Shown one piece after another: positions 21,178-40,667 of a stretch of DNA of 64,000 nucleotides. The notes under the pieces were generated by a model. The model made no database searches. It had not been told where the DNA came from and worked only from the letters and a program-made list of their open reading frames with translations. Within the stretch, counting starts at the first letter, position 1. Each line of letters starts with the position of its first letter. Source of the stretch: a bacterium. Lineage in GTDB: Bacteria > Fidelibacterota > Fidelibacteria > Fidelibacterales > Fidelibacteraceae. The translations under genes and the position numbers were made by a program. The stretch is from positions 864,001-928,000 of the forward strand of contig OY781066.1 of assembly GCA_963676395.1 (NCBI GenBank), in the 5' to 3' direction.

Positions 21178-21422
21178 ACAGCAAATATCCTTATTTAATA
21201 TATCTCATTTCCAAGTAAGTTAAGAGGTATATTCCATTTTATCAAGAAAGTTTATACTTGTTCAGCAGGCCGGCACAAAGCAAAAAGGAATTAAATATTC
21301 CATGTTCGAATTCTCAAATCCACTCATCATTCTATCTCTTATACCAGTTGCCAAACACAATATAAATGACATGTATTAAAATTTTACACAATAAAATAAG
21401 CCCCTCATTTCTGAAGAGCGAA

Positions 21423-21438
21423 TGGTATGTCATCAGGA
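21423..21438 (-). repeat. Highly decayed tRNA-Lys 3'-end remnant
   Basis: tggtatgtcatcagga vs tRNA tggtacgccatcaggg; preceded by a terminator-like remnant. Confidence 0.45.
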
Positions 21439-21544
21439 AGGTCCACCAGTTGACATATAAGAATATGCCGAAAACCTTTTATCTACATAGATTTTAGAGG
21501 CCATGAGTATCAAAATGGAGCAACAATAAATTCATCGCTTCATT

Positions 21545-22459
21545 TTAATGGAATTCAGTTTCTCTATTATATACTCTTCTTGTTGGGTAAGCCAGTTCGA
21601 TAGTGTTTTCTTTATGAAATTCCTGCAAAACAGTTTCCCATATATTATGCTCACTGGTTCGACGTTGACGAGGATTAACCAAATATCTAAGTGTTAGCAG
21701 AACACCACTTTCTTTTACACTTGTGTAGATAATAGGAGTCAATTTATCATAAAAGATCATATACTTTCTTGCTGCCTTCTTGATTTGTTGCTGGGCGCCT
21801 TGAGAAAGGTGCATAACATTTTCTTCGGCAACTTTTTCCATAAGTTGTTTTGCTTTTTTCCAATCACTCTCAAAGGTTATCAAAACCGGTATTTCATTCC
21901 AAATATACTGAAAACCTATTTCATAATTGGCAATTTTACCTGTAATAGCTTTACTATTGGGAATATGAATAATTCTTCCCGTGCTCTGATCCGCATCTAC
22001 CCAATTGCCACATTCAACCATGCTAAATTGCATTACACGCAGATCAATAACATCACCAATCACATTATCTACTTCAATACGATCTCCTACTTTAAAAGGC
22101 TTAACCCACATTATATAGAGCCAACCAGCAAAATTTGTTATTGTATCACGAAGCGCAATGGCAATACCCGCAGAGGCAAGTCCCAAAAAAGTCGTGATAG
22201 ATTTCATTCCTTTAAACCAAACAGAGCCTACAAGAATAATTAGAAATATCGAGTATATATAAAGTATAGCCCTATTCCATCTATATAAATTAGCATCATC
22301 TTTTACCCTTTTTTTTATAATAAAATTTGCCATCAACTTCAGCAAAGTAAGGACAAGAAAAATAATCCCGGAAAACAATATTTTACGCCAGGTTGCATCT
22401 GATATCGAAAAGGACTCAAAGAAAGACAACATATAAACCTCAATATTATAAATAGACAT
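21545..22459 (-). CDS. Small-conductance mechanosensitive channel MscS family
   Basis: GLASAGIAIALRD, PFKVGDRIE, GDVIDL, TGRIIHIPN, IELAYPT. Confidence 0.9.
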   Translation of the reverse strand: MSIYNIEVYMLSFFESFSISDATWRKILFSGIIFLVLTLLKLMANFIIKKRVKDDANLYRWNRAILYIYSIFLIILVGSVWFKGMKSITTFLGLASAGIAIALRDTITNFAGWLYIMWVKPFKVGDRIEVDNVIGDVIDLRVMQFSMVECGNWVDADQSTGRIIHIPNSKAITGKIANYEIGFQYIWNEIPVLITFESDWKKAKQLMEKVAEENVMHLSQGAQQQIKKAARKYMIFYDKLTPIIYTSVKESGVLLTLRYLVNPRQRRTSEHNIWETVLQEFHKENTIELAYPTRRVYNRETEFH

Positions 22460-22559
22460 CTTAAAATAACATAAAGCTCTCTTTTATTGCAAGAATATCT
22501 TGATTTATTAGCGTTGGAATAGCTAACATATAAAGTAATTCATTAAACAAAGGATAAAT

Positions 22560-23624
22560 ATGGCAAGATTCCTAAAAAACAAAAGTGTTGCACTGGGTAA
22601 TATTCCGGGAGATCCTGTTTTTATTGGTGATAAAAAAATGGAAAAAACCGAAATACATATCATCGAATACGATAAAAATGAAATCAAAGAATATGACCTG
22701 GAAGCAAAAGACATCACTACGCTTACTCTTAACAAAAATAAAAATACCTGGATAAATATTAACGGTTTGCACGATATTGAAATGCTTAGGTCACTCGCTG
22801 ATGTATTCCACATTCATATGCTAACACAAGAAGATATCGTAAACACAGGTCAAAGATCGAAAATTGAAGAGTATGATAATTATCTATATTTCGTCATGAA
22901 AATGCTGCAAATTGATAAGAATAATCTTCTGGTTCAAAGTGAACAATTAAGCTTAATTCTTGGTGAGAATTTCCTAATCACATTTCAAGAAAGAACCGGA
23001 GATGTCTTTACGTCAGTCAGAAATAGACTAAGAAAACAAAAAGGTCGGGTTCGAAAAATGGATACCGACTACCTTGCGTACTCTCTTTTAGACTGCATTA
23101 TTGATAGATACATGGTAATCATTGAACATTTTGGTGAAGATATTGAGAATATTGAAAATGCAATACAAGACAATCCCGATAAATCCATTTTAAACAAAAT
23201 ATATGATTACAAGCGAGAAATGAATTACTTAAGAAAAACAATAAGACCCGTTAAAGAATGTGTGTCCGGATTTTCACGCTTAGATTCAGATATTATCAAT
23301 GAGAAAACCTTACCTTTTACTAAAGATTTATTAGATTCGGTGACACAATCACTGGAAATTATTGATGCATACAGAGATATGCTATCAGATCATTTAAATA
23401 TTTATTCAACAAACATAAACAATCGTCTGAATGAGATTATGAAAATACTCACTATTTTTTCAGCTATTTTCATTCCCTTAACGTTTATTGCAGGAATATA
23501 CGGTACCAATTTCGATTTCTTGCCTGAACTACATTTTAAATATGCTTATCCAATTTTTTGGGCTATTTTATTACTTATTGCCGGTCTTATGCTGAGATTT
23601 TTTAAAAGAAAAAATTGGTTCTAA
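22560..23624 (+). CDS. corA: Mg2+/Co2+ transporter CorA
   Basis: WININGLHD, EDIVNTGQRSKIE, FIPLTFIAGIYGTNF (GMN variant GTN), MPEL-like LPEL. Confidence 0.92.
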   Translation: MARFLKNKSVALGNIPGDPVFIGDKKMEKTEIHIIEYDKNEIKEYDLEAKDITTLTLNKNKNTWININGLHDIEMLRSLADVFHIHMLTQEDIVNTGQRSKIEEYDNYLYFVMKMLQIDKNNLLVQSEQLSLILGENFLITFQERTGDVFTSVRNRLRKQKGRVRKMDTDYLAYSLLDCIIDRYMVIIEHFGEDIENIENAIQDNPDKSILNKIYDYKREMNYLRKTIRPVKECVSGFSRLDSDIINEKTLPFTKDLLDSVTQSLEIIDAYRDMLSDHLNIYSTNINNRLNEIMKILTIFSAIFIPLTFIAGIYGTNFDFLPELHFKYAYPIFWAILLLIAGLMLRFFKRKNWF

Positions 23625-23787
23625 AGCTTAGCCATAATATATAGTTTTATTTACCACTTTTTCAGATTAGGATTTCCATCTTATCTGTATGTTGGCTATA
23701 AATTTAAATTTGTATTTTAGCGTTACGTTCAAAAAGCTTTGGATGTAATATTTTTTTAATATCGTTTATAAAATTAATGCTGATAGC

Positions 23788-23812
23788 AAAAAAGGGCTCC
23801 AATGGAGCCCTT
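23788..23812 (-). terminator. Intrinsic terminator, identical copies at ~27744-27768 and ~29542-29566
   Basis: AAGGGCTCCA-T-TGGAGCCCTT followed by TTTT on the minus strand, downstream of three paralogous CTD genes. Confidence 0.8.
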
Positions 23813-23840
23813 AAATATTCTATTTACAATCAACTGTTTA

Positions 23841-24944
23841 CTATTTTACAAATGCAATCTTCTGCACATTTACAACATCTTCAACCATAACTTTCACAAG
23901 GTAAAGACCTGTTGTCATGTTACTGGCATTTATGCGTAATTCATGTGATCCGGCATTCATTGTACCGTTGACCAGCGTTGCAATTTCACGACCGCTTAGT
24001 GTGTAAATTTTTGCGTTTACAATGGCATCGCGTGAAAGTTCTACAGGAACGACAGTGCTAGGATTGAAGGGATTGGGATATGCGGTACCAATCTCAAAAC
24101 CAGCATCCTCAACATCGTTATCAACTGTAACGACAACTGCTTTTGATTCGTATTTTGTTTCATTATTTTCATAATCAACATCGGCTAGCACATAGGTGTA
24201 TTCAACACCGGGAACAACTGTTGCATCTGTGTAAGTATAATTGTTTGTTTTGCTTGTTGTACCGGCGCCCTCAACCATAGCAAGAACGGCATTATTTCGG
24301 TAGACAATGAAAGATGCATTGTTTGTTTCTGAGGCAGTTTCCCAAGATAACTCTACAACTCCTGCATCTGCTGTTGCCCGAAAATCAGCAAGGGTAATAG
24401 GGGTCACAGCCGCAGAAGTGAAGGTGAAATCATCAATCATTAGATACTGGGTTTGATTGAGCTCATAGGGTTCAATTTCAAACTCAATTTCATCAAGAGT
24501 ATATGATGAATAGCTACTTAAATCAACGAATGTATAATAGTTATTCGCCGAAGAATTATTAAATTCATTAAATAATATCTTATGAGTAAATTCAGTAGAT
24601 CCGGCAAATTTCCCCTTGATTAGTACATTATTATATATTGATATGGTCTCTGTATTTGATTTAAGAGGAATTATCCATAAACTACTAACATGGAAATTAT
24701 TTGATGAATTGGTAAACGAACCAACAACCCCACCTCCTATAACAGCAGTATTATTCATCATATAATTATTATCATCAAATCCATAAGCAGGTCGAATGTC
24801 CACTCCAAAACCTGTTGCATTAAAAGTCAGCCCACCTTCTGAAAAACTAGTAGCACCATAGGCCTCAGTTGTAAACTTCTCAGTAATCTGCGCTAAGAGA
24901 ACTACCGGTACTAAAAACATAGTAACAAGTAAAAGTTTTTTCAT
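23841..24944 (-). CDS. Secreted protein: unique N-domain + shared Ig-like/CTD sorting module
   Basis: Signal peptide; PITLADF..W.TASETNNASF; AYPNPFNPST...QKIAFVK. C-terminal ~175 aa near-identical to 27797-28906. Confidence 0.85.
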   Translation of the reverse strand: MKKLLLVTMFLVPVVLLAQITEKFTTEAYGATSFSEGGLTFNATGFGVDIRPAYGFDDNNYMMNNTAVIGGGVVGSFTNSSNNFHVSSLWIIPLKSNTETISIYNNVLIKGKFAGSTEFTHKILFNEFNNSSANNYYTFVDLSSYSSYTLDEIEFEIEPYELNQTQYLMIDDFTFTSAAVTPITLADFRATADAGVVELSWETASETNNASFIVYRNNAVLAMVEGAGTTSKTNNYTYTDATVVPGVEYTYVLADVDYENNETKYESKAVVVTVDNDVEDAGFEIGTAYPNPFNPSTVVPVELSRDAIVNAKIYTLSGREIATLVNGTMNAGSHELRINASNMTTGLYLVKVMVEDVVNVQKIAFVK

Positions 24945-25270: not shown

Positions 25271-25347
25271 TGTTCGCCATTGGGGATGGATAGATTGCAG
25301 ATTCCAGATTGATGATTGATGATTTGTGATTTGATATCCGAACAAGG
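25271..25347 (-). repeat. Decayed tRNA-Lys 3'-end remnant plus GATT heptamer-repeat flank
   Basis: tgttcgccattgggga..gattgcagattccagattgatgattgatgatttg..gaacaagga parallels 38446-38517. Confidence 0.55.
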
Positions 25348-25561
25348 AACATAGATATGTGATTTGCAAAGATTTCTAATTCCAAAATATATTTCAAATG
25401 TTCTATTATTCAAACATTCACGAAGCTAAACAAATAACAGTTATTTAGGGAGCATGGTTTATACTTTTACACATATCCATTTGTTGTTTCCAATAATTAT
25501 AGTAAATTACTAATTGATATATTACAATAAATCAAAAGGGAAATAATACGAAAGGAGTATT

Positions 25562-27340
25562 ATGAAAAAGATTTTGTTACTGATGTCTGTTCTGATGATA
25601 CCGATTACGATGCTAGTGGCCGGCGATTACGATGAATTGATGAAACTCGTTGCCTCAGATCGTGATGAGGGCGATTATTTTGGCATTACCATTTCAATCT
25701 CCGGCGATTATGCGATCGTTGGGGCAGACGGAAAGGATGATAATGCCGGTTCAGCATATATTTTTAAACGCGATGGTGTCAGTTGGTCACAGCAGGCCAA
25801 GCTTGTTGCCGCAGATCGTGCTTTGGGTGATCGATTTGGTAGTTCCGTTTCAATCTCCGGCGATTATGCTATTGTTGGGGCGGCTCATGAAGATCATGAT
25901 GTGTCCGGTGCAAACGAATTGCATGATGCCGGTTCAGCATATATTTTTAAACGCGATGGCGTCAGCTGGTCCCAGCAGACTAAACTCGTTGCCTCAGATC
26001 GTGCTACGAGCGATTTTTTTGGTGTTTCCGTTTCAATCTCCGGCGATTATGCGATCGTTGGGGCACTTTTTGATGATGATGCCGGTTCAGCATATATTTT
26101 TAAACGCGATGGTGTCAGTTGGTCACAACAGACCAAACTTGTTGCCTCAGATCGTGCTGCAATGGATCTATTTAGCCATTCCGTTTCAATCTCCGGTGAT
26201 TATGCGATCGTTGGGGCATATTATGAAGATCATGATGTGTCCGGTGCAAGCGAATTAAGTAATGCCGGCGCAGCATATATTTTTAAACGTGATGGTGATA
26301 GCTGGTCCCAGCAGGCCAAACTTGTTGCCGCAGATCGTGCTTTGGGTGATCGATTTGGTGTTTCCGTTTCAATCTCCGGCGATTATGCGATCGTTGGGGC
26401 AGACGGAAAGGATGATGATGCCGGTTCAGCATATATTTTTAAACGCGATGGCGTCAGCTGGTCCCAGCAGACTAAACTCGTTGCCTCAGATCGTGATGCA
26501 GGCGATCGATTTGGCACTTCCGTTTCAATCTCCGATGATTATGCTATCGTTGGGGCACTTTTTGATGATGATGCCGGTTCAGCATATATTTTTAAACGCG
26601 ATGGTGTCAGTTGGTCACAACAGACCAAACTTGTTGCCTCGGATCGTGCTACGGACGATTTTTTTGGCTATTCCGTTTCAATCTCTGGCGATTATGCTAT
26701 CGTTGGGGCACTTCAGGAAAATTATGGTGCATTCGGTTCAGCATATATATATTCGGTTCCAGCATCAGATGTGCCTCTTCCCATATCTCTTGCTTCTTTC
26801 GGGGCAAAGGTTCAGGGTGGCTCTGTTGAATTGTCTTGGAAAACGGCATCCGAAACCGATAACGCACATTTTCTGATCTATCGTAACAACGAAGTTATTG
26901 CTTCTATTGATGGCGCCGGAACGACCAGTGAACCGCAGAGCTATTCGTTCACAGACAATACCGTTGTTCCGGGTGTAAGTTATACCTATGTACTTGCTGA
27001 TGTTGATTATGCTAATGAAGAAGTAAGACATACTGATAAAGCAGTTACAATGGTTATCCCGGAGAATGATCTACCGCAAGAATTTGCGCTTAACGCCAAT
27101 TATCCCAATCCTTTCAATCCATCAACCACTATCAGTTATCAGCTTTCAGCTAATAGCCAGGTTGAACTATCTATTTATGACATGAGTGGTAAGAAAGTCA
27201 TGACCTTGATCAATGATAATATGCCGGCCGGTTATCATGAAACAAGTTGGAATGCATCTGATTTCACTTCCGGTATCTATTTCTATCGCCTGACCGCCGG
27301 TAACTTTGTTGAAACTAAGAAGATGGTCTTAATGAAGTAA
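25562..27340 (+). CDS. Secreted 7x FG-GAP (integrin-like beta-propeller) protein with CTD sorting domain
   Basis: Seven KLVASDR...FG.SVSISGDYAIVGA...AGSAYIF repeats; PISLASF; NYPNPFNPST...KKMVLMK. Confidence 0.9.
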   Translation: MKKILLLMSVLMIPITMLVAGDYDELMKLVASDRDEGDYFGITISISGDYAIVGADGKDDNAGSAYIFKRDGVSWSQQAKLVAADRALGDRFGSSVSISGDYAIVGAAHEDHDVSGANELHDAGSAYIFKRDGVSWSQQTKLVASDRATSDFFGVSVSISGDYAIVGALFDDDAGSAYIFKRDGVSWSQQTKLVASDRAAMDLFSHSVSISGDYAIVGAYYEDHDVSGASELSNAGAAYIFKRDGDSWSQQAKLVAADRALGDRFGVSVSISGDYAIVGADGKDDDAGSAYIFKRDGVSWSQQTKLVASDRDAGDRFGTSVSISDDYAIVGALFDDDAGSAYIFKRDGVSWSQQTKLVASDRATDDFFGYSVSISGDYAIVGALQENYGAFGSAYIYSVPASDVPLPISLASFGAKVQGGSVELSWKTASETDNAHFLIYRNNEVIASIDGAGTTSEPQSYSFTDNTVVPGVSYTYVLADVDYANEEVRHTDKAVTMVIPENDLPQEFALNANYPNPFNPSTTISYQLSANSQVELSIYDMSGKKVMTLINDNMPAGYHETSWNASDFTSGIYFYRLTAGNFVETKKMVLMK

Positions 27341-27398
27341 ACCTTGAAACGTAAAACGTGAGACGTAAGACATCGTGAAACGTGTTTTCGTAAAATGT

Positions 27399-27427: not shown

Positions 27428-27796
27428 TTTATAGTAGCCAGAAGCTAGAAGCCAGAATAGATATTCGAATATGGATTAATGTTATTCGATCTTCGAAAAT
27501 TTCACATATTGTTTTCGATATTCGTAAATCTTCGTACTCTCCCTCCCTCTTTCCCTCGTGCTCTCGCTCGCTTCTTGAAACATATCACAGAACTTCCCTC
27601 ACAAAATCCAACACATATAAAATCCCCATCGCAAGGATGAGAAAGTGGAAGTTTATGTTTTATTAGTATTAAATCTAGAGCTTTGACTAATAAAGATGTA
27701 ATCTTTCTTTTAATATCTCGCTTGCGAAATTAATGCTGATAGCAAAAAAGGGCTCCAATGGAGCCCTTAAACATTCTATTTACAATCAACTGTTTA

Positions 27797-28906
27797 CTAT
27801 TTTACAAATGCAATCTTCTGCACATTTACAACATCTTCAACCATAACTTTCACAAGGTAAAGACCTGTTGTCATATTACTGGCATTTATGCGTAATTCAT
27901 GTGATCCGGCATTCATTGTACCGTTGACCAGCGTTGCAATTTCACGACCGCTTAGTGTGTAAATTTTTGCGTTTACAATGGCATCGCGTGAAAGTTCTAC
28001 AGGAACGACAGTGCTAGGATTGAAGGGATTGGGATATGCCGTACCAATCTCAAAATCAGCATCCTCAACATCGTTATCAACTGTAACGACAACTGCTTTT
28101 GATTCGTATTTTGTTTCATTATTTTCATAATCAACATCAGCAAGCACATAGGTGTATTCAACACCGGGAACAACTGTTGCATCTGTATAAGTATAATTGT
28201 TTGTTTTGCTTGTTGTACCGGCGCCCTCAACCACAGCAAGAACGGCATTATTTCGGTAGACAATGAAAGATGCATTGTTTGTTTCCGAGGCAGTTTCCCA
28301 AGATAACTCTACAACTCCTGCATCTGTATTTGCAACAAAAGAGGAAAGTTCAATAGGTGTTGCTCCTCCAATTCCGGAGATAGTAATATCAACATAATTA
28401 TAATTCCTTGTATAATGTTGTACCGGCGTTTTTAAATCGAAAATGATTTCAGCAACATTATTAATAGGAGTCGATGTTCCATTATCAAAGAAACTTGTCA
28501 AAGCAGTATTACTTGTTGTTAAAGTCTTATCTGCGATCAATGTCATTGTTTGAAGTGTAAAGCCATATTTATCTTTAAAAACGACGGTTGATGAAGCCTC
28601 TACATTAGTATTAAGATAAGCTCTTAACGTCATCGCTTCAAAAGTGAAATCATCAACACCATATGCTTTTATTGTAAATGACGAACCTTGTATATCTGTA
28701 AACATTTCTGTACCATCATTTACCATAACATTGCTCACAACAAGATTGCTATTATTTGCCATTGTCTTAAAACCGGGTCCTCCTGAATCAGGATTTCCTA
28801 AATTAGCAAAATTCGTTTGAGCATTCAGAGATGTAACACACCCCAATAGCAGAATAGCAAGATATAATGTGAATGTTTTAGTAAAATTATATTTTTTGGT
28901 TACCAT
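27797..28906 (-). CDS. Secreted protein: one copy of an unknown ~150-aa domain + shared CTD module
   Basis: Signal peptide; TNFANLGNPDSGG domain; PIELSSF; AYPNPFNPST...QKIAFVK. Confidence 0.85.
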   Translation of the reverse strand: MVTKKYNFTKTFTLYLAILLLGCVTSLNAQTNFANLGNPDSGGPGFKTMANNSNLVVSNVMVNDGTEMFTDIQGSSFTIKAYGVDDFTFEAMTLRAYLNTNVEASSTVVFKDKYGFTLQTMTLIADKTLTTSNTALTSFFDNGTSTPINNVAEIIFDLKTPVQHYTRNYNYVDITISGIGGATPIELSSFVANTDAGVVELSWETASETNNASFIVYRNNAVLAVVEGAGTTSKTNNYTYTDATVVPGVEYTYVLADVDYENNETKYESKAVVVTVDNDVEDADFEIGTAYPNPFNPSTVVPVELSRDAIVNAKIYTLSGREIATLVNGTMNAGSHELRINASNMTTGLYLVKVMVEDVVNVQKIAFVK

Positions 28907-29113
28907 TATTTTTCCCTTAAATTTTTCGTCATTACTTATGATAATAATTCTTCGACGTTTATATCCACTCTTAACACCGAATTATTGTTTCAAACGAGAC
29001 TTCATAAAACCAATTCGATATAATAGATTTTTCAATCTAGCTATTAAATATCTCTTAAACAATAGAAATTTTTTCGTTTACCTTCTCCCGATAATACAAA
29101 ACTTTCATATTTA

Positions 29114-29313: not shown

Positions 29314-29333
29314 ATATCACTAGGATGGGAAAG

Positions 29334-31558: not shown

Positions 31559-31579
31559 AATATCACTAGGATGGGAAAG

Positions 31580-31958: not shown

Positions 31959-33404
31959 CTACTTAACATAAATCACTTTTTGAGAATTAATTAAATCACC
32001 GGATTGTAATCGAACAATATAAACGCCTGAACCAAGATTATCCGGTTGCCATTTAATTGAATAAGCGCCCTTATGTTTATAAGTATTCTCAAGTACATCA
32101 ACCAACAGTCCGCCAATATCATAAATTCTCAAAGTAGTTTGTGCATCTTTTGTTAAATAATAATCTAATGTTACACTTGGATTAAAGGGATTAGGGTAAG
32201 CTTTCTGCAATCCAAATTGCATGGGTAATTTCACGTTTTCTGATTCAATAGTAATTTCAATTGGATCATGCCATATAATTGTACCACTAAAACCCACATC
32301 TCCTAAACGATAAGTATACCTTGCTCCAGGTTTTACATTTATATCGACAAATTGATAATTGTGTTTTTCTGTTGTTGATCCATATCCGACCAAAGCATCA
32401 TAATGCAAATAATCTGCAAGATGTTCCCAGGACAATTCATCAACTAGACGCTTTTCAAGAATAAACCCTTGATTCTCGGTTTCACTTTCGGTTTCCCAAA
32501 TTAGAGTAATACCTTCGGCATCAGGCTCGGCATAAAAGGATGTCAGCTCAATAGGTGTAGCAGATTCTGCCGTTGTCACCTCTTGGTACACAGTATAATC
32601 GCTAGTACCGTCTTCATTTCTAGCCCGAAACCTCACATAATACGTTGTACTTACATCTAAGCCACCAACTTCTTCAGTTGGTACAAGCATTTCCATATTA
32701 CTTTTAACAATGTTTGTAAATGATGTATTGGTACTTACCTGATAATCCCAGTGCGTAATGCGATAATCTTTTTTGTCGGTCAAAGTAATTGTAAAAGATG
32801 TTGGCTTGACGTCAGATAATGTGAATACTGGATTAACAGGTGTTGACCAGGACCAATATAAATCAAATTCTACTTTATAATATCCATTTTCACCTTCGAC
32901 ACCACAATCGACATAATCTATACTTGTACTACCATTGTTTTTGAAATTTTGCCATGTATTCCTGATGATAGAGCTACTCAAATTATTCATATAATCATAA
33001 TCTGCACTGTAAACATCATCATCGTCACTTTGATATGTACTCACCGGATCTACATCATGCTCCCATCCTTCTAGCCTAATATAAATATTATCGGCATTAT
33101 CTAAACAAGTACCGCTCCACACAACATTCACATCTTCAGAATCCCAAGCACCATTACTATATGCCCGCTCATTGATACTTGAGTGATATTTTACATTTGA
33201 AAAGCTATTGGAGTAAGATGCACCAATATATAAAGAATAGCTCCAAACCGGATCAGCATTTCCAAACTCAAAATTAGTTAAAGCATAAAAATCATCCGTA
33301 CGAATCTGAAAGTCTATTTTTTCTTGAGCAAACAAATTGACCAAAGGAATAATTAAAATGATTACTGTTACTAATACTAAAATTTTCTTCCTACCTAATC
33401 TCAT
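31959..33404 (-). CDS. Secreted protein: variable N-domain + FN3 + Ig-like + CTD (paralog of 17364-18839)
   Basis: AQEKIDFQIRTDDFYA; FN3 nearly identical to the paralog; AYPNPFNP...QKVIYVK. Confidence 0.82.
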   Translation of the reverse strand: MRLGRKKILVLVTVIILIIPLVNLFAQEKIDFQIRTDDFYALTNFEFGNADPVWSYSLYIGASYSNSFSNVKYHSSINERAYSNGAWDSEDVNVVWSGTCLDNADNIYIRLEGWEHDVDPVSTYQSDDDDVYSADYDYMNNLSSSIIRNTWQNFKNNGSTSIDYVDCGVEGENGYYKVEFDLYWSWSTPVNPVFTLSDVKPTSFTITLTDKKDYRITHWDYQVSTNTSFTNIVKSNMEMLVPTEEVGGLDVSTTYYVRFRARNEDGTSDYTVYQEVTTAESATPIELTSFYAEPDAEGITLIWETESETENQGFILEKRLVDELSWEHLADYLHYDALVGYGSTTEKHNYQFVDINVKPGARYTYRLGDVGFSGTIIWHDPIEITIESENVKLPMQFGLQKAYPNPFNPSVTLDYYLTKDAQTTLRIYDIGGLLVDVLENTYKHKGAYSIKWQPDNLGSGVYIVRLQSGDLINSQKVIYVK

Positions 33405-33556
33405 TCTCTTCTCCTATTTTTTTCGAGTATAATCATACTTCTAAGCAAATTACACTGTTAAAATATTTACTAATATTTGCGCAACGAACATCTTTGTGAT
33501 GAATAGGAATAATTTATATAAAATGACGTCTTTTTTATTTTAAATTGATCAATTGC

Positions 33557-34411
33557 CTAAGTACTAAAGTCCCTGATCATTTCTTTAGGAAAATCTCTTG
33601 ATACCGGAATAGTAAATTCAAGCTTCGAAATGTGCAAACTGAGGTTTCTGGCATTACCGTCAACCTTTACCACATTATTCAAGTTCACTAAAAATGAACG
33701 ATGGCAACGTTTCACCTTACTAAATTTATTTAACTGCTCTTCAATACTTGTTATCGAATTTCGAATAATTTTTGATTTAACGATTTCATCATGACGATAA
33801 TAAACAATTAAATAATTTCCCTCAGCCTTTAAACACAAAAAATCATTTAGATCGATCTCAATATTTTCATTTTTATTTCTAGATAAAATACAAATACGAG
33901 TTTCCTCATTATTCTTGTTAATTTTATAAATATTATCGGTAATATCAGCAGCAAATCTCTCATTGGTCTTTGTCAGATATTTTTCCATAAGCAAAAATAA
34001 AATAAATGTCGGAGTAATCCCGACCGCTATCGTCGAGAACAAAAAATAAAACAGACTTTTTTGTTGGATAATCCCCAAACCAACTGTTGAGTTATATATC
34101 CAATTTAATAGAACCATTATAATAAAATGGTAAATTGTAAAAACAAATGTCCTACCGATTGTCCAATTGTCATAATCAAAAAATCGTTTAAAAATACAAG
34201 GAAGCAGAAAAAAACCGGATATCATAACAGAAAAATTAATTATTGAATAGCCGGCGATAAAAAGTGATTTATTCTTTTCAATTTCAGACATACCGAAAGG
34301 TTGAAATATCTCAAGAAAAATTAAAATAAACACAGAAAATATTATAGAGGCCAGTATTCTATATCTTCTTTTTTCAATAAAAGGAAAGGGCTTACTAAAA
34401 AAATTATTCAT
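33557..34411 (-). CDS. Membrane-anchored LytTR-domain regulator (paralog of 18993-19847)
   Basis: SKPFPFIEK, FQPFG, LKAEGNY, RCHRSFLVN, IPVSR; start set at MNNFF by alignment with the paralog. Confidence 0.9.
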   Translation of the reverse strand: MNNFFSKPFPFIEKRRYRILASIIFSVFILIFLEIFQPFGMSEIEKNKSLFIAGYSIINFSVMISGFFLLPCIFKRFFDYDNWTIGRTFVFTIYHFIIMVLLNWIYNSTVGLGIIQQKSLFYFLFSTIAVGITPTFILFLLMEKYLTKTNERFAADITDNIYKINKNNEETRICILSRNKNENIEIDLNDFLCLKAEGNYLIVYYRHDEIVKSKIIRNSITSIEEQLNKFSKVKRCHRSFLVNLNNVVKVDGNARNLSLHISKLEFTIPVSRDFPKEMIRDFST

Positions 34412-34659
34412 ATTAAATCCATAATAAACATTGTTCTCAACAAAAAATACTTCATTTAACACCCAATAGCCAAAAGCTTTTTATAAATATCATATAAATT
34501 TTTAGTTTGAGTGCCTCACCGACCTTCCTCCCATAATCAAACACTCAAATACTTAATTTTTTCAACTTCCTTCCGACAAATCCAAGTACAATTAAACCCA
34601 GTGTATAATGGAAAAACATACTGATTTCAGAATCGAGGCAACATCTTCATCTCATTGCT

Positions 34660-34900
34660 ATAAAATTGTGCCCATTTTGTGGAAGCTTTTTGTCCCAAAA
34701 TGTCCAGAAATGCCGAAACTCGCAGTAATACTATAAAAATGCAGTAAAGAAAAAAGCCCTCATAATCTCATTATTTACAAGGGCTTATAGTGTACGCCAT
34801 CGGGGACTTGAACCCCGAACCAACGGATTAAAAGTAAAGTGGAGAGCCTTTATCTAAGCGGGTTATACGGTTTGTGTACACCAAGATGTGGCTGGTGGAG
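34660..34900. mobile_element. attP-like junction of a tRNA-Lys-targeting integrative element
   Basis: Core 34792-34835 is 42/44 identical to the tRNA-Lys 3' half through the anticodon loop. Left arm has direct repeats ttgtgccca/ttgtccca/atgtcca and hairpin AAGCCCT..AGGGCTT; right flank is shared with 29376-29446. Confidence 0.65.
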
Positions 34901-34967
34901 GAAAATTCTGACGTATTCATTATTTGGTAAACTTGTATACAGCATTAAAGATCGTTTAGAAATAAAA

Positions 34968-35744
34968 TTACCTAATAGCTTTTTTAAAGGCTTTTAGTGC
35001 AAGCCACATACCAAGAATTGAGAATACTGCAAGAACTAAAAATGAAAGCCACAATGGAATATTAGCAGGTATACCCATACCAGGTGTTGCTTCTAAGCTG
35101 ATTTGTCTCATACCTGTTACAATATAGGTTGTGGGATTGATATAAGCACCTATTCTCATCCACATAGGTAGGGTCTCTAAGGGGTACAATGAATTACTCA
35201 AGAAAAGCAAAGGTAATTGAAGCATAAATATCATCATATGATATCCTTCTGAGCTATCGGTAGAAGAAGCGACAGCTAAAGCTATGCCTGAAAATCCTAT
35301 TCCATAGCCTGTAACCAAAACAAGGCCACCTATCCACCCCAGTGGATTGCTCCCCAATTTTGCACCCATTAAAACACCTACGATAAAAATAATTATGGAT
35401 TGAACTAAAACCTTTGTAAGAATACTACTAGCATTCCCCATTAGTATACTTAATCGTGAAATTGGAGCGACAAGATATTCTTTTACTACGCCCATTAGAC
35501 GTTCGTTTAACCATGTTGACCCTCCGGCGATCGCTCCACTCACAGCTGTAAGCGCCACGATCCCGGGAACCATAAACGTCATATAATCATTTCCATTTGT
35601 TGAGGAACCACTCATTAAACTACGCATGCCAACTCCGAACAATACAACCCATAATATAGGTTGTATTAGCATACCAATGATCTCTTCGGGGTGAATCCGA
35701 ATTTTTTTTATTTGTTTCTGCCATAATAAATACGTTTTATTCAT
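34968..35744 (-). CDS. ABC-2 type transporter permease (DrrB-like)
   Basis: Six TMs; YMTFMVPGI, KEYLVAPISR, LSNSLYP, INPTTY. Confidence 0.9.
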   Translation of the reverse strand: MNKTYLLWQKQIKKIRIHPEEIIGMLIQPILWVVLFGVGMRSLMSGSSTNGNDYMTFMVPGIVALTAVSGAIAGGSTWLNERLMGVVKEYLVAPISRLSILMGNASSILTKVLVQSIIIFIVGVLMGAKLGSNPLGWIGGLVLVTGYGIGFSGIALAVASSTDSSEGYHMMIFMLQLPLLFLSNSLYPLETLPMWMRIGAYINPTTYIVTGMRQISLEATPGMGIPANIPLWLSFLVLAVFSILGMWLALKAFKKAIR

Positions 35745-35755
35745 ATTATTTATCC

Positions 35756-36709
35756 TTATTTATCTCGTAATTGCCTTCCGGTATATTTCAAAAACACATC
35801 TCCCAGGTCAGGTTTTGAAACTGAAATATCATCGATTGAAAATCCATTCTCATTGGCTATCCTTATAACTTCAACTAGGCGCTGATTACCCTTATCTACG
35901 CCGATCTGCATAACATCATCAGAAGTATCTATATTTTCGATATACGATAGTTTTTCTATCTTTGACAAGAATTTCTTAGCATTGCCACTTCCATATATTT
36001 TTATATTGTCGGCACCCATTTTATCGATAAGATCATCAGGTGATCCCTCTATCACGATCTTTCCTTGATCGATGATACCAACTCTATCGGCTAGCGCTGC
36101 CGCTTCGTCCATATAGTGAGTTGTTAAGATAATTGTCATGTTTGTATTTGTTTTTAAGGTCCTGATATAATCCCAGATTTTCATCCGGTTCTGGGGATCT
36201 AAGCCTTGGGTCGGTTCGTCAAGGAACAATATTTCAGGATCAGTTATTAATCCACGAGCTAACTCCAAACGTCTTTTCATACCTCCGGAATATGTTTTGG
36301 TCAATCTATCTGCTGCTTCTTCCAACTCAATAAGCTGTAATAGCTCATCGACCTTTTTACTGCGCTCTGATCTATTCATACCATAGAGTCGTGCATGAAA
36401 ATCCAACGATTCACGCCCCGTCATATCAGGATCTAGAACAATTTCTTGAAAAGTCACTCCAATTTTCCGACGAACTTTATCTGCTTCTTTAACAATATTT
36501 AAGCCCTTTATTTGTGCGCTTCCGGATGTGGGCTCTGTTAAGGTTGTCAGCATAGATATTGTTGTTGTTTTTCCGGCACCATTGGGGCCCAATATGGCAT
36601 AGATCGTATTATTTGGTATGCTAAGATCAAGATGATCGACAGCCAGAACATCCTTATCATATGTTTTAGTCAGACCTTTCGTTATGATCGCTTGTTCTTT
36701 TTTTTGCAT
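35756..36709 (-). CDS. ABC transporter ATP-binding protein (DrrA-like)
   Basis: GPNGAGKTT, YSGGMKRRLE, LFLDEPT, LTTHYMDEA. Confidence 0.93.
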   Translation of the reverse strand: MQKKEQAIITKGLTKTYDKDVLAVDHLDLSIPNNTIYAILGPNGAGKTTTISMLTTLTEPTSGSAQIKGLNIVKEADKVRRKIGVTFQEIVLDPDMTGRESLDFHARLYGMNRSERSKKVDELLQLIELEEAADRLTKTYSGGMKRRLELARGLITDPEILFLDEPTQGLDPQNRMKIWDYIRTLKTNTNMTIILTTHYMDEAAALADRVGIIDQGKIVIEGSPDDLIDKMGADNIKIYGSGNAKKFLSKIEKLSYIENIDTSDDVMQIGVDKGNQRLVEVIRIANENGFSIDDISVSKPDLGDVFLKYTGRQLRDK

Positions 36710-36717
36710 ATTTCTTC

Positions 36718-37545
36718 CTATACTTTAACATTTGTCAACGTTTCAGCGACTTTTAATAGTTTTTCCGTTTTGTCTAATTCTTTTTCCGGGATCGACATCT
36801 CCCGTTTTTCATCTTTATAACAATATATTCCGGATACATTCTTAAATTCATCCGAAATGGCCATTGTTGCTATTCTTTCACCGCCATATTGGGGTTTTTC
36901 TAAAAATGAATTAAGAATTCTCATAAAGAATTTTGGGTATTCTCTGAATGAGTCTGTTGCCAGTACTCCGGGATGTAGCGCGTTTACAGTGATCCCAAGA
37001 TCTTTATATTTCCGGGACAGGGTAAGCGTAAATAGTATTCCTGCCAATTTAGAATTTGCGTAAGCATTACTTGCTTTATATTTCGATTTCATCATGAGAT
37101 CCTGCAGATCTATTGTACCGCTTTTGTATAGTTCGGAGACCACATTTACAATGCGTGCGTTATCGGCTCTCTCTAAGTTTGGCTGTAGGAGCTTTGACAA
37201 CATGTAAGGGGCAAGAAAATTTACAGCGAATGTCAATTCCATACCGAGCGCATTTTCCTCTCTTTTAACTTTATATACACCGGCGTTATTAACCAAGACA
37301 TCAATGACCGGGAATTGACTGTTGATCTTTTTTACTACAGAAGTGATTGACTTAGGATCTGCCAAATCCGCTGTAAACAATACGATATTTTTATTTCCGC
37401 TTGCCTCTATGATCTCCTTTTGAGCCAAACGGGATTTTTCACTGTCACGACAAAGCATAAGGACCTGATGTCCTTGTTTAGCAAGAATGAGTGCTGCTTC
37501 TTTTCCAATTCCTGAATTTGATCCTGTTATGATAATAGTTTTCAT
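36718..37545 (-). CDS. SDR family oxidoreductase (retinol dehydrogenase-like)
   Basis: ITGSNSGIG, LVNNAG, YANSK, LHPG. Confidence 0.9.
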   Translation of the reverse strand: MKTIIITGSNSGIGKEAALILAKQGHQVLMLCRDSEKSRLAQKEIIEASGNKNIVLFTADLADPKSITSVVKKINSQFPVIDVLVNNAGVYKVKREENALGMELTFAVNFLAPYMLSKLLQPNLERADNARIVNVVSELYKSGTIDLQDLMMKSKYKASNAYANSKLAGILFTLTLSRKYKDLGITVNALHPGVLATDSFREYPKFFMRILNSFLEKPQYGGERIATMAISDEFKNVSGIYCYKDEKREMSIPEKELDKTEKLLKVAETLTNVKV

Positions 37546-37568
37546 TGTATTATTTATCCTTTCTTCAA

Positions 37569-38072
37569 TTAGCTTTGATATCGTTCAATAATTTTCGTTA
37601 ACCATTGAATTTCATTTTTGTAATAATTGTGATGATATTCTATGGACAAGTGACTCTGTCGAATGTCTTCTGAAAGAGCGTCCAAGGCTTGAAACTTTTT
37701 ATTAATTTGCTCAAGACGTTCCTGTAATAGAATCGCCACTTCATCCGAGGAAAGTGCATATAAATAATCCAGACCAACAACCGCGGGAAACTGAGGAGAG
37801 GGGCAAGTGGCAATGTTTTTACGAAGAAAATTTAAAAATGCTTCTTCACCTTTCTTGGTGATCGAATAAACACGTCGCACAGGTCGATTTCCCTCTTGCT
37901 TTTCATGATGAATGATCAAACCTTCATTTTCCATGTCTGTTAATAACTTATAAGCATTGGATTTTTTTAACTTAATCGGAAGTCCAAGTTCATTTTTTAA
38001 TATTTCATTTAATTGATAACCATGCATTTCGTGGCTTCTCAGTAGCCCTAAAAGTAAAAGTCTTTTCTCCAT
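37569..38072 (-). CDS. PadR family transcriptional regulator
   Basis: LLLLGLL..MHGYQL, Y..L..ME.EGLI, RPVRRVYSIT.KG; AAGGAG RBS before MEKR. Confidence 0.88.
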   Translation of the reverse strand: MEKRLLLLGLLRSHEMHGYQLNEILKNELGLPIKLKKSNAYKLLTDMENEGLIIHHEKQEGNRPVRRVYSITKKGEEAFLNFLRKNIATCPSPQFPAVVGLDYLYALSSDEVAILLQERLEQINKKFQALDALSEDIRQSHLSIEYHHNYYKNEIQWLTKIIERYQS

Positions 38073-38445
38073 TTTAATATCTCCTTTCATTTAGTCACAA
38101 ACGGACTATTCATTAATGACCAATATATGCTTTAAATTTTCTTAAGTCAATCTTTTCCCATGTTTTTTTATCTAATGACAAAAATGACAACTATAAGTCA
38201 TAACTAAAGAGGCGTATTCGAATAAATAACCAATCAAGGATTAACCTTATTCGATTTTCGAAGACTTCATATATAGCCTGTCCTTCGAAGCTTTAGCGAA
38301 GAAGGATAATCCTTGTTCATTATTCGTAAATCAATTCCCCTCTTCTCCTTTTCGCCCCCTCTCCCCATCGCTTCTTAAAATGCTACCAAACATCCCTCAT
38401 AAAATTCAAGGTAATAAAAACTCCCCATCGTCTAAATGGGGAGAG

Positions 38446-38463
38446 TGGTATGCCATCAGGGAC
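38446..38463 (-). repeat. tRNA-Lys 3'-end remnant with terminator 38416-38444
   Basis: tggtatgccatcagggac (17/18 to the tRNA 3' end); hairpin CTCCCCAT..ATGGGGAG with a T run on the minus strand. Confidence 0.75.
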
Positions 38464-38638
38464 GGGTCGATTAGAGATTTTAGATTGATGATTGTTGATT
38501 TGATCTCAGAACAAGGATCACCGATATCCGGTTCACAAATTTTTATCTTTTTCCTGACCCCACACCCCTGACCCCAGGTGAATGTGGCTGGTGTAGGAAA
38601 GGAAGTACTATAATAACATTACCTCATTTTCATGTTCA

Positions 38639-39322
38639 TTAACCCAGTCCGTAAATATGTACGAGGGTATAATAAATACCAACAAGAATAAAAAGCCCCC
38701 CTGTGATCTTACGTACCCAGATCTCGATCTGCGTCAGCTTGGTAAATATCTTGCTAACTGATTTTGTTGCAAAGGCAAGCAGGAAAGCAAAGAGAATAAC
38801 CGGCAAGGCAGTTCCGACACCATAGATTAAAGGAAAAATAATAATGGAGTTTTCTTTTATGGCAAGCGGTACCAGCCCACCAAAAAACAATCCCGCTGAA
38901 ACAGGACAAAAACTCAGGGCAAAAAGTGCTCCGATTGGTAAAGCCAAAAATATTCCACTTTTCGCAGCTTTTTCTTGAATGTGGTCTGTTTTGAATGAGA
39001 ACGAGATGTTCTTTCCCAGCCAATTCAACAATAGCATTCCCAACAGGATCATCACAGGTCCGAGAATCTCATTCATGTGTTTTTGCAAAAATCGGGAGAT
39101 CTCAGCATTTGCCAGTAATCCGGCTGCGATGCCAGCGCCCAATAGGATATACACGAGAGTTCGGCCAAGAGTATACAATAATCCGGATGTGAGGACATGA
39201 GCTTTATTGCCTGCTTTTCGAGAAATAAAAGAAATTGAGGCAATATTTGTTGCAAGCGGGCAAGGACTGATGGCCGTCATAATTCCTAACCACAAAGCGC
39301 TGAAAATGGACAGCTCCATCAT
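38639..39322 (-). CDS. ArsG-family / DsbD-like transmembrane permease
   Basis: LGIMTAISPCPLATNI, LFALSFCPVS, YGVGTALPV. Confidence 0.8.
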   Translation of the reverse strand: MMELSIFSALWLGIMTAISPCPLATNIASISFISRKAGNKAHVLTSGLLYTLGRTLVYILLGAGIAAGLLANAEISRFLQKHMNEILGPVMILLGMLLLNWLGKNISFSFKTDHIQEKAAKSGIFLALPIGALFALSFCPVSAGLFFGGLVPLAIKENSIIIFPLIYGVGTALPVILFAFLLAFATKSVSKIFTKLTQIEIWVRKITGGLFILVGIYYTLVHIYGLG

Positions 39323-39801
39323 TTTCTCACCTCTTTACTGAGGTAAATATCAATCGCATCGCTGATATGTTGATCAAATGCTTCAGGATCTTTCATCAGT
39401 GTCCAAACCTCGTTTAATCGCTGAAAGTCAATGACCTCTCCATTTTGGATATCGGCGACAACAACACACGATGCGGCAACATCAAATTGTTTAGATAGGT
39501 CGATGTCTTTCATAAAATCAATGTCTTGCCATTGGATACTTCCGTCTTCAAGAAAAGAGCTATATTGTCTATCCAGCAGATTTCGGGTCATCGTTTCGAT
39601 GGTATTACAGGTTTCACAGCGAAAGGTGGAATGCATGTAATAAACCGCAACGAAATCAATATTTTTGTTAATTGTTTGACTATCTTGCCTGTTGACAGAA
39701 TTTTTCCCTAACATAAAACCGATACTGACGAAGATGAAAATCAACAGCAAATAGGTAGCAATGGATTTTAACCCGTCTTTATTGACTATCATGTTTAGCA
39801 A
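39319..39801 (-). CDS. ArsF-family thioredoxin-like protein (nitroreductase subunit family)
   Basis: YYMHSTFRCETCNTIE motif; N-terminal TM; adjacent to the arsG-like gene. Confidence 0.75.
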   Translation of the reverse strand: MLNMIVNKDGLKSIATYLLLIFIFVSIGFMLGKNSVNRQDSQTINKNIDFVAVYYMHSTFRCETCNTIETMTRNLLDRQYSSFLEDGSIQWQDIDFMKDIDLSKQFDVAASCVVVADIQNGEVIDFQRLNEVWTLMKDPEAFDQHISDAIDIYLSKEVRK

Positions 39802-40265
39802 CCACTGCTTCCGCAGCCGACAGTTTCCCTTGAATCACAGTCACCGCAGGCGTCATCAATGATCGTATCATTTAGTGGTTTCTTCGAAGGTTTAAGATCA
39901 TATCCCAGTTCGGCCCATTTTTCAAGAATATTATTTTTTGATATAAATCCGATATGCCGCCAGAGCTCATTACCTTTAGCATCGAAAAAGATTTGGGTAG
40001 GGATCTTGGTTATCCCATATTTTTCTGCTTCAAGTTGGTTCTCCGGTTTCCAGACATCGATAAACTCAACGTCGAGCACACCGGCATACTCTTCCTTCAA
40101 TTCTTCAAGTATAGGTGCCATTTCCTTGCATGGAATGCATTTGTCTGCCCCCAGATCCAATAGCTTAGGTGTGCCGTTGACAGATTTTCCGCAAGATAGC
40201 AATAGCACAAATACAAGTAAGACAGTAAAGAAAGTGAACCGTGAATTCATTTTACTTATTTTCAA
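39795..40265 (-). CDS. Thioredoxin family lipoprotein
   Basis: LLSC lipobox; DLGADKCIPCKEM; IPTQIFFD; Cys-rich tail. Confidence 0.85.
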   Translation of the reverse strand: MKISKMNSRFTFFTVLLVFVLLLSCGKSVNGTPKLLDLGADKCIPCKEMAPILEELKEEYAGVLDVEFIDVWKPENQLEAEKYGITKIPTQIFFDAKGNELWRHIGFISKNNILEKWAELGYDLKPSKKPLNDTIIDDACGDCDSRETVGCGSSGC

Positions 40266-40472
40266 ATGTAGGCCTCCTGGACGTATTTTTCATTATCCTT
40301 TATGTAGTAAAGGAGTATTTGGTAAAATAGCCCAATGTTTATTGATTACCAAATTCAAAATTGATAGTCCTTGCCCAATATTCTCAAATATAATTTTATT
40401 TTCATTGTTTATCCTACTTTTCCACTCATATGATAAAATAATGCCAAACAACTTTATAAAACTCAGGGCAAT

Positions 40473-40500
40473 AAAAAATCCCCATCACTAGAATGGGGAA
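40473..40500 (-). terminator. Terminator of the tRNA-Arg/tRNA-Lys transcript
   Basis: TCCCCAT-tctagtg-ATGGGGA followed by TTTTTT on the minus strand. Confidence 0.7.
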
Positions 40501-40591
40501 GTTTTATTAGCCAGCCTTCGCTACCAACTACGCTTTTGCTTCGTCGGTCAAGAAAGCTACGGCTGACCTTCGCCCCGAATACTCGGGACCT

Positions 40592-40667
40592 TGGTACGCC
40601 ATCAGGGACTTGAACCCCGAACCAACGGATTAAGAGTCCGGTGCTCTACCAATTGAGCTAATGGCGC
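40592..40667 (-). tRNA. tRNA-Lys (anticodon CTT)
   Basis: GCGCCATTAGCTCAATTGGTAGAGCACCGGACTCTTAATCCGTTGGTTCGGGGTTCAAGTCCCTGATGGCGTACCA; cloverleaf, CCA encoded. Confidence 0.96.

Follow-up and report, generated by a model that had tools for sequence, protein, structure and literature searches.

The DNA downstream of the tRNA-Lys(CTT) gene of an uncultured marine bacterium (GenBank assembly GCA_963676395.1, contig OY781066.1) probably represents a fossil tandem array of integrative elements that targeted this tRNA gene, lost their integrases and were reshaped by duplication, deletion and inversion. The genome, which belongs to a Neomarinimicrobiota genus, is a single contig of 2,335,625 bases without N; our window, the 64,000-nucleotide stretch that was analysed, covers its positions 864001-928000, and the coordinates below are those of the window unless the genome is named. 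The intact tRNA-Lys(CTT) gene (40592-40667, minus strand; ARAGORN, and Rfam tRNA with 68.8 bits), which anchors the array and would hold the attB/attL core, lies beside tRNA-Arg(CCG) (40745-40819, minus strand; ARAGORN). Our comparisons support the interpretation of the repeated tRNA 3' ends as attachment-site scars of a tyrosine-integrase family widespread in the genus, and the array is best read as an integrase-less structure similar to cis-mobilizable elements (CIMEs), with proteins sorted by the type IX secretion system (T9SS) as its main variable content. The original prediction, made for the interval 21300-40667, had proposed an integron-like platform in which small cassettes are repeatedly added at the tRNA gene, possibly by an integrase acting in trans; we judge an active platform of this kind unlikely.

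Copies of the tRNA-Lys(CTT) 3' end on the strand of the gene lie at 38446, 34792, 31580, 29334, 25271 and 21423, so that a direct repeat of the tRNA 3' end stands at the far end of the array, as in islands inserted by tRNA-targeting tyrosine integrases. The long copies (34792, 31580 and 29334; ~42-59 nt) start in the anticodon stem, their tRNA homology beginning sharply at about tRNA positions 24-27, and each of the three is preceded by a conserved non-tRNA arm of ~70-100 nt, here called the P arm. The short copies (38446, 25271 and 21423; ~18 nt) comprise the 3' strand of the T-stem and the acceptor. With up to three mismatches, the 3' 25-mer of the tRNA matched at 29334, 31580 and 34790 besides the gene itself, and none of 100 shuffled sequences gave any match. 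All five matches of the 3' 18-mer at the same stringency, in the whole genome and on both strands, fall in this locus and on one strand (29334, 31580, 34790, 38446 and 40592); at up to four mismatches, 6 of 11 matches do, and 21423 is gained. The remnants are thus clustered rather than scattered, as had been predicted. Taken by themselves, the copies at 21423 (4 of 18 positions mismatched) and 25271 (6 of 18 by our count) are weak, the latter having its upstream flank as its sole support. That flank (25276-25358) has homologues in the sequence flanking copy 38446 and in a contig of relative G011 (G011:C98), and the stretch 21389-21437, which contains copy 21423 and its terminator, aligns at 43 of 49 positions to the attR of relative G004; in neither case did any of 500 shuffles equal the score. 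The tRNA search with ARAGORN, the 18-mer and 25-mer searches and these flank alignments therefore bear out the predicted positions of the tRNA genes and of the copies. With the last 45 nt of each of the 44 tRNAs of the genome as blastn queries, extra fragments were found for four tRNAs only: three for tRNA-Lys(CTT), two for tRNA-Leu(TAA), one for tRNA-Phe and a 19-nt piece for tRNA-Met; one more match was a cross-match at the tRNA-Leu fragment. We also observed a solitary P arm with only the anticodon-stem part of a tRNA-Lys copy at genome 1863176-1863272, which is 958 kb away from tRNA-Lys; a gene for an 886-aa T9SS protein follows it in convergent orientation.

Read in the sense of the tRNA, that is, on the minus strand of the window, the copies and their flanks form the junctions J0 to J7. 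J0 (40471-40591) consists of a ~92-nt spacer that ends in a weak tRNA-end-like stretch, followed by a CCCCAT..ATGGGG terminator termed T2; the same arrangement of spacer and T2 is found in relative G018 at 97.8% identity. J1 (38320-38590) contains part of the P-arm motif (38578-38590), an AATC-rich flank (38464-38560), a short tRNA copy (38446-38463; 17 of 18 positions), T2 and a ~125-nt trailer, and units of this type occur in G011:C98 and G007:C261 as well. J2 (34680-34900) is built of a 59-nt P arm (34842-34900) containing CACCAGCCACATCTTGGTGTACACAAACCG, a long tRNA copy (34792-34841; 39 of 40 positions match the tRNA) that begins at the anticodon stem and extends to the 3' terminus, and a P' arm (34680-34791) with a distinct terminator and then GGACA/GGGACA repeats. 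J3 (31371-31705) carries a second subtype of the P arm, a long tRNA copy (31580-31631), a truncated T2 and a 3' fragment of arsG (31371-31557); J4 (29103-29459) is a duplicate of J3, with its tRNA copy at 29334-29385, a truncated T2 and an arsG 3' fragment at 29103-29313. At both, T2 is cut after 19 nt and the final ~200 nt of arsG follow. J5 (27519-27660), at which a left stub of the P arm is joined straight to a full T2 and a trailer that aligns to that of J1, corresponds to the terminator-only scar predicted near 27620-27650, which is real. J6 (25271-25378) is a decayed version of J1, with a decayed short tRNA copy and the same AATC-rich flank. J7 (21389-21440) combines a short, decayed tRNA copy (21423-21440; 14 of 18 positions) with a third type of terminator, homologous to the chromosomal side of the G004 attR, and is likely the oldest, outermost attR.

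The original prediction is right about the flank motif: CACCAGCCACATCTTGG occurs at ~29425, 31671 and 34881 and, in part, at ~38581. Its statement that most copies keep the CCCCAT..ATGGG terminator is right only in part. The complete terminator follows the tRNA, 38446 and 27650, a truncated one follows 31580 and 29334, and 34792 and 21423 have other hairpins. The sequence after the hairpin, TTTTTATTGC..GAGTTTTAT, is common to the three terminator types, which are therefore diverged versions of one tRNA-Lys downstream flank. Beyond the P arm of J3, a 53-nt repeat with the GGACAGTTTAA motif (31777-31832, minus strand) recurs at genome 2010616 and in six relatives, and we read it as a putative distal piece of the P arm. 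The idea that it is a coding remnant of an integrase was rejected: it has stop codons and sits just outside the C-terminal integrase remnant of G004.

The interpretation of these units as attachment sites draws on G004, the closest of the relatives compared. There, Rho, penicillin amidase, tRNA-Arg and tRNA-Lys follow one another, and the tRNA-Lys flank has a CCCCTG..CAGGGG terminator and four GGACA repeats (the P' arm). After this arm, an opposite-strand open reading frame (ORF) of 202 aa encodes a truncated integrase (Phage_integrase, PF00589, E 3.8e-22), with a 3' fragment of tRNA-Leu(TAA) and small ORFs beyond it; a P arm with a 53-nt tRNA-Lys copy (98% identical) stands 2.2 kb from the tRNA, and a terminator similar to that of J7 follows. 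This locus forms an attL...attR pair around a decayed integrase. J2 of the window matches both of its arms, the P arm and core at 92% over 99 nt of attR and the core and P' arm at 80% over 145 nt of the attL flank; J2 is thus an attP-like P-O-P' junction of the kind that tandem integration of two elements would leave between them. The P and P' arms are therefore shared, at J2, with integrase-bearing copies by sequence, protein binding to them being putative, and the predicted origin of the repeats as att duplications of tRNA-targeting tyrosine integrases gains support from the match to the G004 attR and attL. A P'-type flank after tRNA-Lys also occurs in G020, G021, G005 and G002.

The arms are not confined to tRNA-Lys. 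Full-length homologues of the integrase (336-350 aa) stand at tRNA-Phe (G001), tRNA-Met (G029 and G021), tRNA-SeC (G038), tRNA-Leu(CAA) (G019) and tRNA-Leu(TAA) (G004:C39), and a copy with stop codons stands beside tRNA-Phe in G003. The P' motif adjoins the G029 and G003 copies, and two metagenome contigs carry a P arm downstream of tRNA-Met, at 1.3 and 2.9 kb. Because the arms recur beside integrases at several tRNAs, they belong to an integrase family with varied tRNA targets. A search for related loci among genome contigs with the G004 integrase fragment gave three loci, one being G004 itself. A metagenome scan with a 16-base P-arm pattern, which gives no estimate of abundance, found true P arms in 3 (L081, L089 and L116) of 80 loci examined among the 118 matches listed.

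The genome studied here shows traces of the same family at other tRNA genes. At tRNA-Leu(TAA) (genome 2002461), a second tandem array (2002461-2013667) contains two near-identical units of arm, tRNA copy, terminator and P' arm at 2003657 and 2013150. After each unit comes an integrase remnant, the two ORFs being 99 and 145 aa long, and a 1327-aa T9SS protein is encoded between the units. At tRNA-Met(CAT)/tRNA-Val (genome 33356-33888; tRNA-Met at 33814), an adjoining 100-aa N-terminal integrase remnant is 75% identical to the tRNA-Met-adjacent integrase of G021, and three T9SS genes lie within 10 kb downstream. The tRNA-Phe of this genome has one 3' fragment.

By contrast with the truncated integrase of G004, the window has no integrase gene adjoining the tRNA-proximal att site. 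A six-frame search of the whole genome for PF00589 gave five places, none of them in the window, and tblastn with ten integrases at E ≤ 1 returned only noise there, in agreement with the prediction that no intact integrase is present. The further suggestion of a tyrosine integrase elsewhere with matching sites failed: the complete 2.34 Mb genome has no cognate integrase for the tRNA-Lys sites. It encodes three full-length recombinases, of which two are Xer-like and stand in housekeeping contexts; the third, a 279-aa tyrosine recombinase (genome 712955-718328), follows rsgA and is itself followed by Abi_alpha and SIR2_2 proteins, a locus that looks like a small defence islet. No link of any of the three to the tRNA-Lys sites was detected.

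The P arm and the tRNA-like sequence could also be considered a gene for a small non-coding RNA, or else a miniature mobile repeat, with no relation to integration. The unit is highly conserved, a terminator adjoins it, and in several relatives small GC-rich hairpins are inserted into it at fixed positions, all of which would fit such a view, but an Rfam search of 8000-44000 at E ≤ 1 gave the two tRNAs and one sub-threshold chance match and no other family, GGACA repeats of the arm type are common to it and to the P' arms next to integrases, and the copies are tied to tRNA loci; we regard this explanation as highly improbable. The hairpins themselves (such as CCCCGATCGTTCGGGG or TCCGCCAGCTGGCGGA) lie in the P arm, the anticodon arm and the T loop of the tRNA-derived copies of relatives (L016 ~12200, L041 ~7440-7520, L043 ~8140, L050 1340-1440, L054 ~2080 and L116 570-745), and could represent either miniature palindromic repeats or traces that further recombination left behind.

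Not every unit of the array was added from outside. The P arm and tRNA copy of J3 and J4 are identical at 121 of 121 positions inside a ~1.09 kb repeat that is ~87% identical. Along this repeat, the att unit is the best conserved part, with 118 of 120 positions over its two bins (60 of 60 in one), and the adjoining bins reach 57-59 of 60; since these neighbours are nearly as conserved, we do not claim selective homogenisation of the att unit. The copies at 31580 and 29334 are evidently parts of one tandem duplication, and the arsG 3' fragments at J3 and J4 suggest duplication of a copy of the tRNA-proximal region, with an internal deletion afterwards. J5 lacks ~107 nt that hold the remainder of the P arm together with the tRNA copy, the gap lying between two CCAC words in our reading of the sequence, and it looks like a microhomology deletion derivative. 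Duplication is also apparent among the genes: the 3' ~630 nt of the T9SS genes at 23841, 27797 and 29595 are 92-97% alike, which makes these genes paralogues, the gene for the 523-aa T9SS protein contains an internal duplication (30177-30633 and 30639-31092; 93%), and a LytTR and T9SS gene pair (31959-34462) is paralogous to 17364-19847 at 72-83% nucleotide identity. The array thus does not record seven independent insertions, and the proposal that every interval is a separately added cassette does not survive: J3 and J4 are one tandem duplication, J5 is a deletion derivative, and the arsFG and CorA/MscS genes are conserved in the genus.

The contribution of duplication raises the question of whether any mobile element is needed, the tRNA-Lys region, with its neighbouring genes, having multiplied by tandem duplication and unequal crossing-over with later 5' decay of the extra tRNA copies. 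J3/J4 and the T9SS paralogues did arise in this way, and the copies also bear a terminator and trailer homologous to the native downstream flank of the tRNA. All long copies, however, end at the same tRNA position, the conserved non-tRNA arm is common to integrase-bearing loci and tRNA-Met-linked sites, and G004 has a truncated integrase at the homologous place. When the P arm was considered as a diverged 5' half of the tRNA, it showed no similarity to it and gave no tRNA call with ARAGORN or Rfam. We thus consider duplication without a mobile element very unlikely.

An assembly artefact, with repeats collapsed or mis-joined, is in our estimate extremely unlikely. The stretch is present, as Logan contigs, in one public sequencing run (X1), and the contigs break within the repeat-rich 27.6-31.7 kb, as k-mer assemblies do, leaving J3-J5 unbridged. 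On the other hand, contigs of 5964 and 1912 nt cover 32799-38762 and 38738-40649 without a single difference, reaching the tRNA and thereby bridging J2 and J1 (in a run that is possibly the source sample), the genome forms a single N-free contig of 2.34 Mb, the copies differ from one another, and other genomes have homologous junctions. Joints in the X1 contigs that skip 171-8211 nt, one of which "goes back", were considered as excision products and rejected; with short sides (21-42 nt) or a depth of 2, they point to contigs of paralogues or of other organisms. No trustworthy excision or circle junction or variant junction was seen in run X1, whose contigs are blind to rare forms, and the circular junctions that the original prediction envisaged thus found no counterpart there.

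The orientation of the tRNA genes indicates a further rearrangement. In seven of eight readable relatives (G002, G004, G005, G015, G018, G020 and G021), the amidase is directly followed by tRNA-Arg and tRNA-Lys in the same orientation, and ribH marks the end of the variable stretch in G020. In the window, the tRNAs have the opposite orientation and adjoin the rib side; G019 has the window's rib-upstream arrangement. These differences from seven of the eight relatives suggest that a segment of ~32 kb (8990-40900), with tRNA-Arg, tRNA-Lys and the array, is inverted. The G+C contents of the individual segments (0.32-0.45) lie mostly inside the 5-95% range of the genome (0.32-0.43), so that composition does not mark them as foreign.

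The anatomy of the locus leads us to the following model, in which we infer both the order of events and the present immobility of the array. Incoming elements would integrate site-specifically and repeatedly at tRNA-Lys(CTT), each bringing its own 3' part of the tRNA, terminator and P' arm and pushing the previous copy outward with the P arm of the element in front of it. Two classes of crossover can be recognised, one in the anticodon stem for the long copies and one in the T arm for the short ones. Afterwards, the integrase genes would have been lost; a unit of P arm, tRNA copy, truncated terminator, arsG 3' fragment and the start of a T9SS gene would have been duplicated in tandem; one junction would have lost ~107 nt between CCAC words; and the whole ~32 kb segment would have been inverted.

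Several findings weigh against this model of a decayed array. Serial integration predicts P-O-P' at every inner junction, and only J2 fits; J1, J3, J4 and J5 bear a T2-type terminator and trailer, not P', and the T2-type flank looks like chromosomal sequence or the P' arm of another class of element. By tblastn, no integrase remnant was found in the array, though such remnants persist at tRNA-Leu and tRNA-Met. The arsFG and CorA-MscS genes, which are conserved in the genus, sit between scars, so that some intervals would not be islands. P arms are 82-96% alike between species, next to cargo that cannot be aligned and in genomes whose amidase proteins are only 62-73% identical; the arms seem too conserved for old neutral scars, which points to recent movement or constraint. 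Integrase-less islands with both arms recur in several species. Finally, the relatives are fragmentary metagenome-assembled genomes (MAGs) of other species.

Those recurring islands were examined in the relatives. G005, G021 and G015 each have one island, 5-7 kb long, bounded by tRNA-Lys on one side and by a P arm with a tRNA-derived copy on the other. For G005 and G021, but not for G015, the reading includes the conserved flank that follows the tRNA; the tRNA-derived copies of G021 and G005, found by the P-arm search, are diverged and interrupted by hairpins. The cargo is different in each of the three islands, and no integrase homologue was found in the stretches examined. In G002, G011 and G015, several P arms with tRNA copies adjoin T9SS genes without an integrase. 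Across the examined loci, the P-arm census amounted to 23 matches, 20 distinct sequences, in 11 genomes of the genus, and something integrase-like was nearby in only two within stretches bounded by contig ends: the truncated integrase in G004 and, in G008 (contig C44), 240 nt from the P arm, fragments of a different recombinase, 58-62% identical to the 279-aa recombinase. The cargo after tRNA-Lys differs among G002, G004, G005, G015, G018, G020 and G021, and no relative has the cargo order of the window. The proposed comparison of this locus among relatives thus gave a different content in every genome examined, and the presence and content of the islands vary between related genomes, as is typical of tRNA-targeting islands.

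On this basis, it could be argued that the junction units are maintained sites of an active accretion platform, where integrase-less cassettes, mostly for T9SS-sorted proteins, would be inserted, excised or exchanged by an integrase that a rare element provides in trans, which in established terms would be cis/trans mobilisation of CIMEs. The conservation of the P arms beside unrelated cargo, the single islands with different cargo in G005, G021 and G015, the multiple arms beside T9SS genes in G002, G011 and G015, the many MAG contigs that end right at or after tRNA-Lys, and a ~13-fold enrichment of T9SS genes in the array would all agree with it. Against it stand a closed 2.34 Mb genome with no cognate integrase, its only non-Xer recombinase (279 aa) having no detected link to these sites, the decayed cores of J6 and J7 (6 and 4 of 18 mismatches), the origin of several units from duplication and deletion rather than insertion, and the lack of any high-identity cassette common to two species. 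We judge such a platform unlikely; the conservation of the P arms, the recurrence of integrase-less islands and the T2-type inner junctions keep trans-mobilisation alive as an idea of the same low probability. A slightly more doubtful extension is that the tRNA-Lys locus of the whole genus is a maintained exchange platform in which integrase-less cassettes, chiefly for T9SS-sorted surface or secreted proteins, are swapped between cells by a rare trans integrase and conserved modules of arm, tRNA copy and terminator may serve as recombination sites. If true, this would be a cassette system for cell-surface diversification, integron-like in its working and built from tRNA att sites; should the integrase-less units prove mobile in trans, the exchange of cassettes that vary the cell surface could be studied conveniently at this locus.

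Integrons hold a directional array of promoter-poor cassettes between recombination sites, growing at one end. The present array has no IntI beside it and no attI, and its head is a tRNA gene. Its separators are direct tRNA-derived repeats with an arm of ~70-100 nt, not attC as judged by anatomy rather than by an attC-specific model, and several of its units are multi-gene operons with their own regulators. The description as integron-like is thus not sustained, and tandem accretion of decayed, cis-mobilizable islands is the nearer concept.

Three described systems are closer to the locus. In Dehalococcoides, as described by McMurdie et al. 2011 (PMC3146451), multiple tandem islands downstream of ssrA (tmRNA) are delimited by direct repeats of its 3' end, and some of them, without an integration module, were proposed to be cis-mobilizable. 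An extra conserved motif upstream of each repeat, strain-specific content and the dominance of one adaptive gene class are common to that system and ours. The Dehalococcoides islands, however, involve a serine recombinase and a 20 bp repeat, and many units keep the integration module (PMC3146451), whereas our array has tyrosine-integrase family arms, long and attached to repeats of 18-59 nt, no integrase, and T9SS cargo. CIMEs and accretion in the ICESt1 family and in streptococcal integrative and mobilizable elements provide the second parallel: according to a review (PMC5704250), CIMEs keep attL and attR, have lost integration and transfer genes, stand in tandem at the 3' end of target genes including tRNA-Lys, and originate by integration, decay and further integration. 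In our array, the J0-J2 and J2-J3 segments are likewise bounded by recognisable att copies without an integrase, the outer copies being decayed. Mobilisation in cis was demonstrated experimentally for CIMEs (PMC5704250), whereas here any mobility would be hypothetical and several att cores are decayed; the host belongs to an uncultured marine lineage without known conjugative partners. The third parallel is the tycheposon islands of Prochlorococcus, in which, according to Hackl et al. (bioRxiv 10.1101/2020.12.28.424599), older elements are displaced inward by successive integrations at tRNAs, fragmented integrases and partial tRNAs lie scattered through the islands, and intact elements are rare and transient. 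Both cases concern marine bacteria with small genomes and islands at conserved tRNA positions, a likeness of island behaviour alone; Prochlorococcus belongs to a different phylum, and its islands have a different integrase family and carry nutrient-uptake and defence genes instead of T9SS cargo (bioRxiv 10.1101/2020.12.28.424599). The tRNA-Lys locus is therefore a well-documented instance of a known process, here in another phylum and with T9SS cargo.

Its interest lies in its host. The Marinisomatota are small-genome bacteria that abound in the ocean and are uncultured, and their gene exchange is little known. The tRNA-Lys, tRNA-Leu(TAA) and tRNA-Met loci show that one tyrosine-integrase family writes tRNA-adjacent variable regions in this group, the material retained consists mostly of T9SS-sorted proteins, which form the exposed repertoire of the cell, and the conserved arm of ~70 nt is a practical marker for such islands in fragmentary MAGs.

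The predicted names of the cargo genes hold by Pfam and NCBIfam. Nearest to the tRNA lies a thioredoxin, ArsF-family and ArsG operon (38639-40265, minus strand; Pfam and NCBIfam), followed by PadR, SDR, ABC ATPase and ABC-2 permease genes (34968-38090, minus strand), a LytTR regulator with a 481-aa T9SS-sorted protein (31959-34462, minus strand), a 523-aa T9SS-sorted protein (29595-31166, minus strand), its 369-aa paralogue (27797-28906, minus strand), which is also a paralogue of a 367-aa protein, a 592-aa FG-GAP-repeat T9SS-sorted protein on the opposite strand (25562-27340, plus strand) and, at 21545-24944, the 367-aa T9SS-sorted protein (minus strand), CorA (plus strand) and MscS (minus strand), all assigned with Pfam. 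The FG-GAP protein gene contains seven tandem repeats of ~153-183 nt that are 75-86% alike (25643-26748). Five proteins with T9SS sorting domains are encoded in the interval of the original prediction and a sixth just outside it. The predicted richness in secreted proteins is borne out, since 6 of the 74 matches to these domains in the genome fall within 14.8 kb of the array, where 0.47 would be expected (Poisson 1e-5). Further T9SS genes lie beside the solitary P arm (genome 1863176) and inside the tRNA-Leu array.

The remaining cargo includes genes found throughout the genus. A homologous thioredoxin-ArsF-ArsG operon is present elsewhere in G001, G009, G016, G018, G020 and G021, and arsFG and CorA-MscS are genus-wide genes that neighbour each other in G001 and G016. 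The occurrence of trx-arsF-arsG, CorA and MscS across the genus marks them as conserved genes caught inside the array, not cassettes. In G001 (L038, 12119-12214), an intact arsG is succeeded by an insertion of 2.6 kb and then by a 3' fragment of arsG; by our reading of the sequences, the insertion contains pyridine-nucleotide disulphide oxidoreductase-like and ACR3-like ORFs.

Outside the array, at 12217-13098, a 293-aa ORF matches Pfam Ntox23 (bacterial toxin 23; E 2.6e-11) and adjoins two large PAS-domain ORFs (13095-16994), of which 13095-15353 encodes a hybrid histidine kinase. Among the more distant loci, L017 (G025:C36, ~4965-5230), from another family of the order, has tRNA-Lys and, after ~230 nt, another short tRNA 3' end that bears the same terminator, an arrangement resembling an element that has collapsed to its attL and attR. 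At L058 (G006:C201, 1557-1879), a 52-nt copy of the tRNA-Lys 3' end (100% identical) with a P' arm stands 80 nt downstream of an intact tRNA-Ser(CGA).

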